Source: Oscillospiraceae bacterium (lineage in GTDB: Bacteria; Bacteroidota; Bacteroidia; Bacteroidales; Bacteroidaceae). From it: 64,000 nt of DNA. The stretch spans positions 66,704 to 130,703 of the forward strand of contig CAVAHD010000003.1 of the NCBI GenBank assembly GCA_963588475.1, given 5' to 3'. Below are positions 6,877-26,051 of the stretch, piece by piece. How positions within the stretch are numbered: position 1 is the stretch's first letter; each line of letters opens with the position of its first letter. The notes beneath the pieces were generated by a model. It saw nothing but the letters and a program-made list of their open reading frames with translations. It made no database searches and had not been told where the DNA came from. A program made the translations under genes and the position numbers.

Positions 6877-7103
6877 TGTTTTGTCAGTTCCTGTTTGATT
6901 TCTTCACTTGTAAAATTCGCCTCCAGCTGGGCGAGTGCGGCGCAAGCGTTAATCTCGCAGTCCACCTCGTCACGCACCCGACGGAGCAGCTCCAGCTCGT
7001 AGTTCCGCGCCTTGCGACGGGCGATGCTCTGGATAGCCGCACGCAGTACCTTGACTGCCTGCGCTATCTCTGCGTCTTCTTGCTTACGTTCTTTGGCAGT
7101 CAT
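6873..7103 (-). CDS. hypothetical small phage protein
   Basis: 76-aa helical ORF that overlaps the stop of the upstream gene by 4 nt. Confidence 0.5.
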   Translation of the reverse strand: MTAKERKQEDAEIAQAVKVLRAAIQSIARRKARNYELELLRRVRDEVDCEINACAALAQLEANFTSEEIKQELTKQ

Positions 7104-9490: not shown

Positions 9491-9595
9491 TGGAGGCGGC
9501 AGGAGTCGAACCTGCTCAACAGAAGTAACACTAAATCTATCTCATAAACAATAATGGCTTGCTGACCTTTCCGAGAGCCAGCGAACTCCGCCTCC
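9491..9595 (-). ncRNA. tRNA-like element E1 (acceptor, D-like and T arms present, no canonical anticodon arm)
   Basis: Perfect 7-bp acceptor helix GGAGGCG/CGCCTCC. Perfect T arm GCAGG-TTCGACT-CCTGC. A 3-bp D stem has a GG-containing loop. It is 105 nt long, with a 6-bp helix TCAGCA/TGTTGA enclosing an AU-rich insert. Confidence 0.4.
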
Positions 9596-11499: not shown

Positions 11500-11925
11500 C
11501 CTTTGCCGCATATAGAGAGTTTAAGAAATCTCACCTATAAGAGACATGGGTTAGAAGAAAAGAGAGTCTTTATGATACCTACTGGAGAACCAGTCCTTTC
11601 TTTGTCTTCAAGAGCACTAATCATGGAGGTTGCCAACCTTTCTGTGTTCCTTCCTTTTCTCTTACCTTTCGGTATGCTGGCGCCTGTTGACGGGCGGTGG
11701 GTCAGAGCAGGACTTGGGGAAGTACCATTTTCGTACTGGAGCAGTTTTATATATCGGCAGGTAAACCGAAGAGGACTGCACGGATTTAACCTCTATGAGA
11801 AGCCCCCACCTCTGTGTGGTTTCTTTTAGGAACGAGAAATCTACAGGCACAGGTGGGGGCTTAGATATATATTATCATGTCTCTTATACTGCTCTCGATG
11901 TACCTCTAGAATCCTCGTTCCTTTG
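11500..11925 (-). ncRNA. candidate structured RNA or long structured leader (about 400 nt)
   Basis: No credible ORF. A 13-bp long-range pairing joins 11536-11548 to 11876-11888. A 10+3 bp hairpin joins 11802-11816 to 11848-11860. A 9-bp crossing helix joins 11828-11836 to 11914-11922, and several local hairpins are present. A TACCTTTG box lies just upstream on the minus strand. Confidence 0.35.
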
Positions 11926-11931
11926 TGGTTG

Positions 11932-11939
11932 CAAAGGTA
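11932..11939 (-). promoter_or_regulatory. Bacteroidetes -7 promoter box (TACCTTTG)
   Basis: Matches TAnnTTTG on the minus strand. It sits between a terminator at 12101-12133 and the structured region. Confidence 0.45.
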
Positions 11940-12100
11940 GTAAGAAAAACTTACCAAACAAATAAAAAGTTGCCTTTTCTTGCCATTATACTTGTAAATA
12001 CCGTAAAAGGGAACAAAAAAGCGAAATAAAGAACACTAAACAAAGTAATAAAAACTTACTTTAAACTTAACTTTGCGTATCTTGATGGAATCCCAGATAC

Positions 12101-12133
12101 AAAAAAAGGACACGCCATGTTGTCTGCGTGTCC
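12101..12133 (-). terminator. rho-independent terminator
   Basis: On the minus strand, GGACACGC-N10-GCGTGTCC is followed by T7. It lies 40 nt after the stop of 12175..12519. Confidence 0.65.
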
Positions 12134-12174
12134 CTTCGGGAATGCCGGAACGTCCGGCTTTATGGAGAACGGAT

Positions 12175-12519
12175 CTATTCTTTGCTAAGTGCCTCGAGAA
12201 CGCCGCCTATGACGTTTATCTCGTGGTGTGAGGCCTCGATGTGGTCAAGGAGGGAGAATATGCCATTGTTGCCTATTAGCGTGCGTACAACATCTCTTTT
12301 GTCCTTATCTTGGGAATCCATAGCATAGAAGGTCAGAACGCGCCTCAGTGCCGCCTGTGAGGCGTTGAGGCTGACAAGTCGGTTCAGTATGTCGGCGGTG
12401 CTTTGCAGGTGGCTCTCCATCCGGGCGATGTCGCTCATGTTACCCTTGGTGCTCTCGGTTTCAGACTCGGTGAATAATGCTGCCATCTCGGCGATTGTTG
12501 TTGATGATATTTCTTTCAT
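12175..12519 (-). CDS. hypothetical phage protein
   Basis: 114-aa helical ORF lying 1 nt after the Bro-N gene stop. Confidence 0.55.
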   Translation of the reverse strand: MKEISSTTIAEMAALFTESETESTKGNMSDIARMESHLQSTADILNRLVSLNASQAALRRVLTFYAMDSQDKDKRDVVRTLIGNNGIFSLLDHIEASHHEINVIGGVLEALSKE

Positions 12520-12520
12520 G

Positions 12521-13279
12521 TTAATTTGCGTATCCTATTTGGGTTAGTAATGTTGGGAATGTGTTGTCGTACCACTGTACCTGTGTCTGCGATAGGTTCT
12601 GTGGGTTGACTACGTTCTGACCGTAGTCGGAATAGTCGGCGTTGAGCGTTATCCATGTGTGCTCTTTGCCATTCGCCCCCTTGCGGTGCTGACGGGTGCA
12701 GATGCCCTTCTCTACCAGCTTCTTGTTGAACGCCAAGGCAGAGAGGTTAACGCCGTGCTGCTTTAAGAGGAACGTAGCGCAGTGGATAGTAGGCTCGGCT
12801 TTCTCTGCCGGAGCGTAGTCGGGGAGCGGAACGCCTATCGGGCTAAGTATTGCCTGCGCCATCAGCAGCTTGCTCGCTTGCGTGAGGTGCAGGAAGTCTG
12901 CCGCCCACGATGCCGCCTGTAGTTTCTCTTGAATGGCGGACGCTGGTGTGTTGGCGGTGTAACTGCCGCGCTTGCGGATGGAGGGAAGCACCTCTGACGT
13001 TATCCATTTGCGGAACTTCTTGGCTGACGGCTTGCGCGAGTCGAGGATTACGTCGTACAGGCCGTCCTCGTTGATGAAGTTGGCTTGCTGCTCTCTGCCT
13101 AAGGTGTCGAGGATGATGTGTTTTGTAAACACCCCATCTTCCAAACGCCGTGCAACCTGATTGGCTGTAAGGTCTAACGCCCTGCATACGTCTGCGAGGC
13201 AGAAAAGCGGTTCTTCACTTGTACCAGTGGTACGTATCTCCCCAAATACGGGGCTTTGGAATAATTGAATGTCGTTCAT
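12521..13279 (-). CDS. Bro-N domain antirepressor-like protein
   Basis: The N-terminus FGEIRTTG..EPLFCLADVCRALDL...FINEDGLYDVILDSRKPSAKKFRKWITSEVLPSIRKRG is a typical Bro-N/ANT domain. Confidence 0.8.
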   Translation of the reverse strand: MNDIQLFQSPVFGEIRTTGTSEEPLFCLADVCRALDLTANQVARRLEDGVFTKHIILDTLGREQQANFINEDGLYDVILDSRKPSAKKFRKWITSEVLPSIRKRGSYTANTPASAIQEKLQAASWAADFLHLTQASKLLMAQAILSPIGVPLPDYAPAEKAEPTIHCATFLLKQHGVNLSALAFNKKLVEKGICTRQHRKGANGKEHTWITLNADYSDYGQNVVNPQNLSQTQVQWYDNTFPTLLTQIGYAN

Positions 13280-15230: not shown

Positions 15231-15383
15231 CTATTCATAGCAGACGAATGCAAGATAGTCCTTGGAGACCGAGGAGACGGCATTACTTGCCGTTCCCCCG
15301 ATCTCCAGAAGTTGTGCGTGCTGGGACGTGTACCAGTTTCCTTCAGCCCTGCCTCTGACGGCACAGGTGTTTACTCGTAGCAT
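15231..15383 (-). CDS. small phage protein, module 3 of a ...VCYE family
   Basis: ORF 15231..15431 trimmed to MLRVNTC..., which starts 13 nt inside the preceding ORF. Its C-terminus SKDYLAFVCYE is homologous to that of the preceding ORF. Confidence 0.4.
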   Translation of the reverse strand: MLRVNTCAVRGRAEGNWYTSQHAQLLEIGGTASNAVSSVSKDYLAFVCYE

Positions 15384-15556
15384 ACGCAAAGAAGGTTGTC
15401 TTTGGTTACTGTGCTGATGGTGTTCGTCCACGGCTCACGGCTCATGCGGTGGTGCTTGTCTTGGTAGCGGCACCCCCCTTTGTCGCCGTGCAGTCGGCGG
15501 TAGGCTTTCGCCTCCTCCGTGCGGTAGTGGGTGAGGATGGCTCTGCGCTCACTCAT
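15371..15556 (-). CDS. small phage protein, module 2 of a ...VCYE family
   Basis: 61-aa ORF. Its ATG overlaps the end of the reading frame that carries the methylase C-terminal remnant. It ends TKDNLLCVCYE. Confidence 0.45.
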   Translation of the reverse strand: MSERRAILTHYRTEEAKAYRRLHGDKGGCRYQDKHHRMSREPWTNTISTVTKDNLLCVCYE

Positions 15557-15785
15557 AGGCTACAAGCACCATAGTATGCTGGCCGTGGTTGCAGCCGAAG
15601 AGACCTGCCCATCCGTCGTAGCGTGAGGAGAGTGCCGTGGAATACCCCCCCCAGCGCGTCCGAGAACTCTGATTTCGGATTTTTCAACTTTCAATTTGTA
15701 AGCATCCATGCCCGTAGAAGAGTTTTGAAGCCCCTCAAGAGGACCTTTTTTACCTTGGGAAAGGCATGAAACTTCGGCTACACTT
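15549..15785 (-). pseudogene. disrupted 3' part of the Dam-like methylase gene
   Basis: It is in the same frame as 15786..16475 but is interrupted by four stops between 15680 and 15788. The frame then reopens through a G8 tract to ...GGYSTALSSRYDGWAGLFGCNHGQHTMVLVAYE. Confidence 0.35.
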
Positions 15786-16475
15786 TCAAATTGTAAGTTT
15801 TCGAAATTGTGGTTGGGAGTTCTCGGACAGCCTCCCCCAGTTCTGAAGGTTGGTGTTGAGTCGCTCCATGGCTTCGGCTGACTGCATTCGCATGGTCTGC
15901 CCCCCCCGTAGGTGGCTGAGCCGTTCCGTCCGAGCAAAGTGCTCGACTTGCATCTGCCCCCCCTCGAACGATTGTTGCTGGAAGTGGCCGTACTGCGAGA
16001 AGTATCGCTTCACGGCGAGGTAACGCTGCTGAATGTCCTTGATGGGGTCGATGAATGAGAGGTCGTGGCCCAGTTCGCGGCCCAGCGAATAGTCGGAGAA
16101 GAACATGGCATAGTGTATCGCCTTCTTCAGCGGCTCTATCTCCTGCGAATAGAGATAGTCGCGCAAGTTATTGCCGAACGACCACACTACGACCACGTAG
16201 GGGTCGGTGTCGCGCAGACGGAAAAAGTCCTCACGGCTAATCCATCTGGTCTCGTTGTTGTACTTACCGCTCAGCGCGTCGATGAAGAGGGTAGGGCACA
16301 TCCAGTTGAGGTCGTTGATGTGAATGTGATCATACTTCTTCATCACCATAGCGGCATGGCTCACTGCACACCCGCCGCAGAAAAGGTCTACGAGGTGTGT
16401 GCGCTTGGGCAGAAGGCGCACGATGCGCTCCGCCAGTTTGTTCTTGCTTCCCTTATAGGGTAGTCCGTATTTCAT
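15786..16475 (-). CDS. T4 Dam-like (D12 class) DNA adenine methyltransferase, apparently truncated
   Basis: The N-terminus YKGSKNKLA...LVDLFCGGCAV (motif I) and FRLRDTDPYVVVVWSFGNNLR resemble T4 Dam. No DPPY motif occurs before the stop. The 3' part contains G7 and G8 tracts. Confidence 0.65.
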   Translation of the reverse strand: MKYGLPYKGSKNKLAERIVRLLPKRTHLVDLFCGGCAVSHAAMVMKKYDHIHINDLNWMCPTLFIDALSGKYNNETRWISREDFFRLRDTDPYVVVVWSFGNNLRDYLYSQEIEPLKKAIHYAMFFSDYSLGRELGHDLSFIDPIKDIQQRYLAVKRYFSQYGHFQQQSFEGGQMQVEHFARTERLSHLRGGQTMRMQSAEAMERLNTNLQNWGRLSENSQPQFRKLTI

Positions 16476-24965: not shown

Positions 24966-25163
24966 TTTTTAAGAGTCTACAACGGCGTGGAAATGAGGCG
25001 TTAGCGGCGTTGCCCGCAGTTTGAGGGATTGTAACAACATTTTAATGTACGTTAGAGGAAAAAATGAGTGGCAAAATGGTAAATTTGCTCCCGTTTAACA
25101 TAGTTTAACTGTCACTAAACGTAATTTTATAGGGGGGGGTAGAAATGAATAAAGATTTTTTTG

Positions 25164-25211: not shown

Positions 25212-26051
25212 ATGGAACTTCATGTAATTTGTATCGCTGTCATCGTGCTACTAGTTGCAATGACAGTATGGTTATATCTTACTAACAATTCTCTGCGCCG
25301 CGGCATCAACCAGCGTGACGAAGATATCGTCAATTTTAAGGCAAGATGCGACAAGGCAGAAAGAGCCAATAAGATGAAGGATTTTTACGTTCAGAATATG
25401 AGCCACGAAATCCGCACCCCCTTGAACGCAGTAATGGGATTCTCGCAGTTGTTGAGCATCCCTGGGCTACCCGTCTCCGACGAAGACAAGGAGAAGTACG
25501 GCCAACACATCCAGAACAATGGCCGGATGCTGATGATGCTCGTCGACGACATCCTTAACATCTCGGACATAGAGTCCGGCGCGTTCTCATGCACCAAGCA
25601 CGAGGAGCGTGTCAACGAGGTATGCCGTGCCGCCCTGGCTTCCGTGGAGTACCGCGTGCAGCCGGGAGTGGAGCTGAAGATAGAGACCGCTTTCGACGAT
25701 GACTTCACCATCTACTCAGACTCCCGTCGTGTTCAGCAGGTTCTCACCAACTACCTCACCAACGCCTGCAAGCACACGAAGAAGGGCTCTATAACCCTGA
25801 GTGCCGCCAAGGGCAAGCGTGAAGGCTGGATAGAGTTTGCCGTAACGGATACGGGCGTGGGCATCAAGCCCGAGCTGGCCAACAACCTCTTCGAGCGTTT
25901 CGTAAAGCTCAACAACAACGTTGCCGGCACTGGCATCGGCTTGAACATCTGCATGCGTATAGCCCAGGTGATGCACGGCGAGGTAAGCCTCGACACCACC
26001 TACACCAATGGTGCCCGCTTCGTCTTCGCTATGCCTATCGAGAAGGCCTAG
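25212..26051 (+). CDS. sensor histidine kinase
   Basis: One N-terminal transmembrane helix, the H box MSHEIRTPLNAVMGFSQLL, an N box, G1 DTGVGI and G2 GTGIGLNIC. Confidence 0.85.
   Translation: MELHVICIAVIVLLVAMTVWLYLTNNSLRRGINQRDEDIVNFKARCDKAERANKMKDFYVQNMSHEIRTPLNAVMGFSQLLSIPGLPVSDEDKEKYGQHIQNNGRMLMMLVDDILNISDIESGAFSCTKHEERVNEVCRAALASVEYRVQPGVELKIETAFDDDFTIYSDSRRVQQVLTNYLTNACKHTKKGSITLSAAKGKREGWIEFAVTDTGVGIKPELANNLFERFVKLNNNVAGTGIGLNICMRIAQVMHGEVSLDTTYTNGARFVFAMPIEKA

Follow-up and report, generated by a model that had tools for sequence, protein, structure and literature searches.

A truncated phage D12-class methylase at a composite locus and a candidate multi-tract slippage switch in its intact relatives

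The composite locus

This report concerns a stretch of 64,000 nucleotides (nt) of contig CAVAHD010000003.1 (assembly GCA_963588475.1), referred to throughout as the window (64 kb), and within it a locus on the minus strand where a Dam-like DNA methylase gene is broken among runs of G. The runs are a G7 (15957-15963), a G8 (15900-15907), a second G8 (15645-15652) and a further G6 (15473-15478). Four G/C runs of at least 7 nt occur in the window, where base shuffles yield about eight, and three of the four fall inside 320 nt (P ~3e-4 for random placement). The methylase open reading frame (ORF; 15786-16475) is 229 amino acids (aa) long. Its frame meets stops at 15788-15786, 15752-15750, 15737-15735 and 15686-15684 and is then open until a stop at 15551-15549; a +1-frame ORF is present at 15560-15937, and the peptide GGYSTALSSRYDGW is encoded from 15650 downwards. 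An earlier note, made on this DNA from its letters only, had described the first three runs, the closure of the methylase frame at 15786, the four stops, the reopening to 15549 and the +1 ORF, all of which the sequence bears out. The note had taken the whole for one Dam-like methylase broken around three tracts. A broken methylase is indeed present, but the region is a composite, in which the stop-filled gap is a separate repeat that has other flanks elsewhere, and every junction of the composite falls at a G-run.

The first piece, 15834-16475, corresponds to the first 214 residues of a phage D12-class methylase, two linker modules included. Its N-domain (15964-16475) bears the Y-K-G-S-K and F-C-G-G-C motifs; YKGSK and DLFCGGCA are legible in the ORF translation, and the N-terminal S-adenosylmethionine (AdoMet)-binding motifs are therefore present. 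The domain ends ...QQQSFEGG. The class was assigned from a Pfam match to PF02086 that covers aa 7-57 only (E=7e-11; 42.7 bits with a cut-off of 22) and from a PHROG match to phrog_56, 'DNA methyltransferase'. The N-terminal AdoMet-binding motifs are shared with T4 Dam and E. coli Dam (D12 class, alpha-type N6-adenine), and intact relatives of the window gene also carry a (D)(I/P)PY motif IV in their C-terminal part, which the window copy does not have. The likeness to these two enzymes is otherwise limited, since 51 of 253 profile positions match and a sequence search of the PDB with the full-length relative P0017 gave no significant match to a solved structure.

Downstream of the N-domain the fragment runs through the beginning of a linker. 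Alignment with the related loci L003 and L004 identifies the G7 at 15957-15963 as tract 1, homologous to the first tract of intact relatives, and the G8 at 15900-15907 as tract 2. Between them lies module M1 (15908-15956; 49 nt), stop-free in all three frames, and after tract 2 comes module M2 (15839-15899), which is always 61 nt long and whose preferred frame reads QTMRMQSAEAMERLNTNLQN. The position of tract 3 is occupied by a G5 (15834-15838), and this is the junction: methylase homology ends here by blastn and by alignment with L003, and contigs of other sequencing runs diverge precisely at this point. Tracts 1 and 2 of the window copy leave reading in frame, and the cut falls exactly at tract 3; the truncated ORF then continues for 15 codons into the repeat element before its stop.

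Homologues of the window ORF number 2801 and are 206 to 395 aa long. The fragment is 78% identical to aa 1-214 of P0017 and 96% identical to L003 at the DNA level. No DNA similarity was found to any of 50,697 deposited phages, and at the protein level these gave only distant methylases of less than 60% identity. When the full-length relatives P0017 and P0039 were searched against the window by tblastn, only residues 1-214/219 matched (16475-15834), and a C-domain with motif IV (…VIYCDIPY…) was found nowhere in the 64 kb; the same search rules out a catalytic half lying inverted elsewhere in the window. Since the catalytic half is absent, no tract change can restore the window gene. The window copy is a remnant that cannot yield an active enzyme at any combination of tract lengths; simple-sequence repeats (G7 and G8) do lie inside its ORF, but with no catalytic domain there is no functional product for them to switch.

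These results also bear on how the break is to be read. Three options had been offered in the earlier note: phase variation, decay to a pseudogene or homopolymer sequencing error. With the catalytic half missing from the 64 kb it is decay that fits the window copy; the absence of the C-domain leaves no room for a one-G gain that restores the gene, nor for sequencing error as the cause of the break. The same note had placed a G tract where DPPY is expected and had likened GGYSTALSSRYDGW to DPPY-x2-T-x3-Y-x3-W. In this family, however, motif IV is C-D-I-P-Y and lies in a C-domain of about 110 aa, and because that domain is found nowhere in the 64 kb the motif is missing altogether and not replaced by a G tract. 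The likeness of the peptide is coincidental; it belongs to a mini-ORF homologous to a target recognition domain (TRD) of C5 methylases, which is described below.

The second piece (15653-15833) is a 181-nt imperfect palindrome that holds all four of the methylase-frame stops. Its terminal inverted repeats, AGGCTGTCCGAGAACTC and AGCGCGTCCGAGAACTC, have 17-nt arms with 12-13 nt perfect, both in the window and in L004, and there is also an inner 17-nt inverted repeat. The element is predicted to fold as one long hairpin, with a fold z-score of only -1.4. The copy in L004 (4053-4233) is 94% identical and is joined to the methylase at tract 2, after which unrelated DNA follows, so that both the junction and the downstream flank differ from those in the window. 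In Logan contigs from eight runs the element appears as a unit of its own, with contigs breaking at both G-runs, six or more distinct flanks to either side and a local depth above that of neighbouring sequence; in X3 and X25 another element-like end follows it. G-runs in direct orientation and of unequal length flank the element (G5/G8 in the window, G5/G6 in L004), and because of this inequality no target-site duplication of defined length is legible. Exact-word scans for the element returned 0 hits in GTDB representative genomes, IMG/VR and JGI metagenomes, and its distribution is therefore known only from the Logan contigs. An intron, a ribozyme and a small RNA were considered for the gap and rejected: no Rfam family matches (E<=10), the z-score is -1.4 and ARAGORN finds no tRNA.

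From these features the element is read as a repeat resembling a miniature inverted-repeat transposable element (MITE), which would lie in, or recombine through, G-runs. Like MITEs it is about 180 nt long, non-coding, bounded by terminal inverted repeats and present in many copies with different flanks. Unlike them it has no legible target-site duplication and no known cognate transposase; none turned up, although no search was aimed at one.

Tracts and linkers of the intact relatives

The full-length relatives P0017 and P0039 (392-394 aa) begin with the N-domain, pass through a hypervariable linker and end in a conserved C-domain (…ITSSVLDY…VIYCDIPYE…FDYERFYDW…PVFISSY). Linkers were compared at 12 loci whose N-domain is at least 75% identical to that of P0017 (L001, L003, L005-L012, L039 and L041); L049 was added later and used for the pair comparison and for tract density. 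Between …QQQSFEGG and ITSSVLDY… the linker measures 19-421 nt and is made up of modules split by one to six tracts, G6-G19 and A8-A16. Nearly all long linkers retain an A-run; in L010 and L039 the whole linker is reduced to a single G8, with no A-run. The tracts belong to the gene far more than to its surroundings, with 42 in 15.0 kb of D12 gene (2.8/kb) versus 16 in 92.2 kb of flanks (0.17/kb). The earlier note had proposed a comparison with intact homologues and had raised variable tracts as a possibility. Tracts 1 and 2 of the window do have homologues of variable length among the relatives, but intact relatives run on into the CDIPY domain, and the third G8 of the window belongs to another type of gene. 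L003, for example, runs from tract 3 into more modules and the CDIPY domain, and needs a single shift, at tract 1.

Tract length varies between near-identical genomes. Between L001 and L049, whose flanks are 98.1% identical, the 1179-nt gene shows no substitution at all, and yet all five tracts differ in length (G6/8, G10/9, G8/7, A13/16 and G9/10). Tract 1 is G8 in X1, X5 and X9; in X27 G7, G8 and G9 are found together, on contigs that also differ by substitutions. Tract 2 is G9 in X1 and G5 in X3. Deletions also run from tract to tract: M1 is lost exactly in a contig of X30, M2 is lost in L004, and in L010 and L039 the linker has gone in this way but for its one G8. As a separate observation, the first tract reaches G19 in the IMG/VR contig L011 (3511-3530), its close relatives L008 and L012 having G10 and G9.

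The consequences of these differences can be followed in the predicted proteins. Among the 120 closest homologue clusters, 27 are ON (C-domain present) and 93 are OFF, so that 78% look frame-shifted. Seventy of the 93 OFF clusters end 12 or 23 aa past the last GG, which means that they read through the full length of the linker and came into the C-domain in either wrong frame. ON alleles of one gene pass through different intermediate frames (P0017, P0060 and P0062). With 27 clusters ON and 93 OFF, and with one shift restoring L003, changes of tract length are predicted to switch the product in these relatives.

Passage of the linker in any frame is made possible by a near absence of stops. 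In about 2.7 kb of linker (nine loci together with M1 and M2 of the window) the coding strand contains 4 stop trinucleotides, versus 68.1 +/- 6.0 (minimum 50) in dinucleotide shuffles, and the reverse strand of the same set contains 69. Stop depletion is independent of sequencing accuracy. From it we conclude that translation really takes place across the linker in every one of the three frames. It also follows from a linker free of stops in all frames that only the summed tract length modulo 3 decides whether the C-domain is translated. One frame is nevertheless still preferred in M2 despite the three open frames: the frame reading QTMRMQSAEAMERLNTNLQN has 75 synonymous and 99 non-synonymous codon differences, and the other two have 12/163 and 16/155.

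More distant relatives that have no tracts show ordinary out-of-frame stop counts and are always in frame; at the position of the linker they hold in-frame QSLQSLERLQ… repeats. In L014, L042, L043, L045 and L047 long in-frame (Q/E)(S/R)L tripeptide repeats (QSLQSLERLQSL…) stand in place of the modules, and the modules of the tract-bearing clade look like diverged copies of these repeats.

TRD mini-ORFs and the genomic neighbourhood

The third piece of the composite begins at the G8 at 15645-15652, which is both the distal flank of the element and the internal tract of a small ORF, mini-ORF A. Only the 3' part of A is present (15549-15644; …YSTALSSRYDGWAGLFGCNHGQHTMVLVAYE*), its 5' part being missing. 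Mini-ORF B (15371-15556; 61 aa; …NTISTVTKDNLLCVCYE*) has a start that overlaps the stop of A and contains the G6 at 15473-15478; mini-ORF C (15231-15383; 50 aa; …SNAVSSVSKDYLAFVCYE*) likewise starts over the stop of B. In X1, X3 and X5 the sequence upstream of the third G8 is …MINQTAFVQRGAQFSAR-GG-YSTALSS…, at loose contig ends, and not the element, and this tract is therefore internal to mini-ORF A. L050 carries the same mini-ORF A, and P0210 shows A frame-shifted at the point of the G8. Mini-ORF B has 96.5% DNA identity to L003:12746-12945, where it is frame-shifted at the tract, and the length of its tract differs in X1, X5 and X27.

Elsewhere such mini-ORFs form larger arrays. In L003 an array (A, B, C, D and further modules; 11700-12954, minus strand) lies 5.7 kb from the methylase in opposite orientation and has five G tracts inside 660 nt. 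In L050-52 about eight mini-ORFs (L050:6900-8200) follow directly downstream of a 439-aa C5 methylase (PF00145) in which motifs IX and X stand before motif I; from this order the C5 core is circularly permuted and without a TRD. The mini-ORFs of the arrays are 45-60 aa long, end …(I/V)xY(D/E)*, are often joined at GA(G/A)TATGATTGA, and in many cases carry an internal G tract. Both G tracts vary among L050, L051 and L052, although 3.2 kb of their sequence has only 3 substituted sites.

The nature of these modules was approached through family D. A profile of mini-ORF D found 66 clusters among 1.84 billion representatives, almost all of 34-130 aa, and it matches aa 7-53 of P0249, where IRRLTPRE (motif IX) and a PF00145 domain (E=1.6e-50) follow; standing immediately before motif IX, the D module is in the position of a TRD. 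A, B and C are tied to D by their occurrence in the same arrays and by the fusions P0218 (D-like with B-like) and P0210 (A-like with D-like). They have no Pfam, PHROG or PDB matches of their own: a concatenated query of A, B and C plus the open frame of the element found no match among 5.8 billion proteins, and a sequence search of the PDB with a mini-ORF found nothing significant. By their sequence relationships, with homology tested on family D, the mini-ORFs of the window are taken to be homologues of C5-methylase TRDs. There is no C5 core in the window. The arrangement of the arrays suggests that they may be trans-acting, individually switchable specificity modules.

Trautner and colleagues reportedly found the C5 methylases of the Bacillus phages SPR, phi3T and rho11s to be multispecific, with tandem TRDs in one polypeptide. 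Short tandem TRD modules beside one core are common to those enzymes and to the present arrays, and a fused enzyme of that kind is encoded in L017. Unlike them, the TRD-like modules of L050-52 and L003 are separate 45-60-aa ORFs with overlapping starts and stops, many with a G tract; those of L050-52 stand downstream of a permuted core, and the window keeps three modules and no core. L017 (1347-2944) and L018 (1718-2944) encode, immediately upstream of the D12 methylase, a canonical C5 methylase that has three tandem TRD-like motifs; in L017 it is broken into two ORFs, and in L018 it forms one 409-aa ORF with a shorter TRD region. In L050, at about 6955-6990, the C5 core ends …GAGAGAAAAAAGGATGGAGATAAATAA. 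The first mini-ORF has its ATG within this stretch, immediately preceded by an A6 run, and an mRNA short of one A would fuse the C5 core to the TRD.

The locus lies in a prophage early region (about 12 to 23 kb of the window) with Ant, helix-turn-helix regulators, NinG, a RecE-like exonuclease, Sak and RhuM/Bro. NinG is directly upstream of the methylase fragment, and L004 has the same NinG-methylase order. From about 23 kb onwards there are ordinary Bacteroidota-type chromosomal genes, the host being read here by gene content. The sole other G8 of the window (25132-25139, plus strand) is intergenic (…TTTTATAGGGGGGGGTAGAAATG…). It stands some 70 nt ahead of a gene for a histidine kinase (25212-26051) and is possibly a host promoter or leader tract of variable length.

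On the large phage contigs the D12 gene lies just upstream of a putative large terminase subunit, as read from its translation. Two further genes of these phages also have G tracts. One is a 406-aa gene resembling 3'-phosphoadenosine 5'-phosphosulfate (PAPS) reductases (PF01507), with three G7-G10 tracts (L049:864, 1512 and 1572; L005:873, 1522 and 1580); in the large phages it immediately precedes the methylase gene, and it is a candidate DNA-modification gene with tracts. In the other a G8 (L001:9387-9971, with the G8 at 9515; L049:6519) lies in a small ORF pair or a 194-aa ORF with …ITNPPYKY…, which has no Pfam match and is possibly another adenine methylase; near the G8, gene callers divide it into a 60-aa and a 132-aa gene.

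Explanations and meaning

As a whole, we regard it as probable that the window holds a dead composite scar and that the intact family operates a multi-tract slippage switch. The scar consists of codons 1-214 of an orphan D12-class (Dam-like) methylase gene from a phage, cut at tract 3; the 181-nt MITE-like repeat, joined at tract 3 and with G-runs on both sides; and, from the distal G8 of that element, three TRD mini-ORFs (A' truncated, B and C) without a core. In the intact family, polymerase slippage during DNA replication would alter the tract lengths, and slippage would probably also occur in transcription, on A11-A16 and G8-G10 runs; the sum of the tract lengths modulo 3 would then determine whether the C-domain is translated or not. 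The outcome would be a fast and reversible ON/OFF heterogeneity of phage DNA methylation, which may serve to hedge against host restriction. The sequence evidence points to a multi-tract contingency switch in phage DNA-modification genes, working by DNA slippage, transcriptional slippage or both.

Several observations weigh against this combined explanation. The window's two junctions are known from its assembly, and tract heterogeneity within one population is predicted from a comparison of assembled contigs. None of the eight runs has a contig crossing either window junction as it stands, no Logan run holds the window (best share 0.23), and only L004 independently shows a junction of methylase and element, at tract 2 and not at tract 3. 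The 181-nt element being multi-copy, two separate copies of it may have been merged in assembly; the methylase and TRD remnants might then lie apart, each of them still cut off at the element. The search for the C-domain covered the 64-kb window of a 141.5-kb contig, 77 kb of which lie outside it. Very long tract lengths (A13-A16, G19) are uncertain in short-read assemblies. Finally, the AlphaFold2 model of P0017, built from 27 close ON homologues, is poor (mean pLDDT 45.9, the predicted local distance difference test score) and only weakly suggests that the linker is disordered.

Explanations that keep a single gene at the locus account for few of the results. An intact methylase caught in a phase-OFF state, in which gain or loss of a G restores one ORF and a G-run stands at the catalytic motif, would agree with the genuine variability of tracts 1 and 2 in the family and with the +1 frame open across the gap; with no C-domain or CDIPY in the 64 kb, a gap that is a foreign repeat element and, downstream of the third tract, a TRD mini-ORF conserved elsewhere, it is extremely improbable. 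We give no more credence to homopolymer errors of sequencing or assembly as having broken a single-frame gene in the window and the family. It is true that long G/A runs are error-prone and that 78% of homologues look frame-shifted, but errors cannot delete 330 nt of coding sequence from the window, nor can they yield a coding-strand-only purge of stops in three frames (4 versus 68 expected); moreover, the differences of G6 versus G8 are inside the reliable range of short reads, and relatives that lack tracts, known from data of the same sort, are never out of frame. A gene split by a revertible rearrangement, such as inversion between opposed G-runs with the catalytic half elsewhere on the replicon, is very unlikely. 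The geometry of L003, where methylase and TRD array are about 5.7 kb apart and opposed, would fit an inversion between a G-run and a C-run when compared with the window, where the two are adjacent and co-oriented; however, the window has no C-domain and shares no further synteny with L001 and L003, the loci that bear a terminase, homopolymers of 8 nt are poor substrates for site-specific inversion and no recombinase is seen beside the locus.

Two other explanations deserve more weight. The adjacency of the three pieces may be an artefact, the assembler having walked through a multi-copy repeat and joined two loci. The element has many flanks and a depth above its surroundings, no contig examined supports the exact pair of junctions in the window, and in L004 the element is followed by different DNA. 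Against this, both sides resemble one prophage early region, and a de Bruijn join requires words in the reads that span each G-run junction; we consider such a misjoin fairly unlikely, and it would alter the neighbourhood only, not the truncation of either gene. Alternatively, the tracts may act mainly at the RNA level, giving a small, fixed in-frame fraction of mRNA and hence an attenuator instead of a heritable switch. Runs of at least 9 A or T do cause transcriptional slippage in bacteria (PMC1088944, PMC5009743, PMC4256274), an A-run is kept in nearly every long linker, most genotypes are OFF, and such a mechanism would equally call for a linker open in three frames. This possibility is a serious one, if somewhat less than even in our estimation: the linkers of L010 and L039 contain one G8 but no A-run, and tract lengths differ in the DNA between otherwise identical genes, from which heritable switching follows whether or not RNA slippage adds to it.

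The switch proposed for the intact family resembles known systems in part. Type III mod genes of Haemophilus, Neisseria and Helicobacter are phase-variable and form phasevarions (PMC5149525, PMC3230613). Here as there, a simple-sequence repeat in a methylase ORF would set the frame by its length and so give ON or OFF states. Unlike phasevarions, the present family is of an orphan phage D12 enzyme with up to six tracts in one 190-420-nt linker in place of a single tract, and because this linker is purged of stops in three frames it is only the summed length that matters; the window copy, in addition, cannot switch. Frameshifts that are rescued when transcription slips at poly(A) runs (PMC1088944, PMC5009743, PMC4256274) likewise involve long A-runs in ORFs with out-of-frame downstream domains, but here tract lengths vary in the DNA.

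Phage use of contingency loci has been argued only recently (PMC12633550). The cases reported or cited there are polyG runs in the genes by which Campylobacter Fletchervirus phages bind their receptors (Sorensen 2021), a polyG run in a methylase gene from the BPP-1 group of Bordetella phages (Liu 2004) and T-even contingency loci. These too are slippage-prone phage genes that give heterogeneous virus populations, one precedent being a methylase, and they have one tract per gene; in the present phages, an uncultured lineage from the gut, tracts are concentrated in DNA-modification genes, with modular tract-to-tract deletions and a linker open in three frames. No description of a multi-tract linker open in three frames, or of arrays of stand-alone TRD mini-ORFs, was found in full-text searches of the literature.

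For the window, the result is a correction: the locus is a dead composite, made up of one small repeat and two fragments of methylase genes, and no methylation of the lysogen should be ascribed to it. For the family, it offers in a widespread lineage of gut phages what may be a natural and extreme example of a contingency locus, with up to six tracts in one gene, and in the three-frame stop-free linker an evolutionary signature that does not depend on sequencing accuracy. It also carries a warning for annotation, since about three quarters of the genes of this family will be called truncated or frame-shifted. Programmed epigenetic heterogeneity of phages, the relative dominance of DNA and RNA slippage, and the supply of C5 specificity by separate, individually switchable TRD mini-proteins all become testable.

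More tentatively, uncultured gut phages of about 90-110 kb and related prophages may concentrate hypermutable G and A runs in their DNA-modification genes (the D12 methylase, and the permuted C5 methylase with its TRD array), so that a burst would be a combinatorial mixture of methylation states and specificities, the G-runs serving also as joints at which modules are shuffled. If this is so, the G-runs in the PAPS-reductase-like gene and at the putative second methylase would be part of the same pattern, the scar in the window would be a by-product of the process, and the phages would be hedging their bets against both methylation-sensitive and methylation-dependent host restriction.

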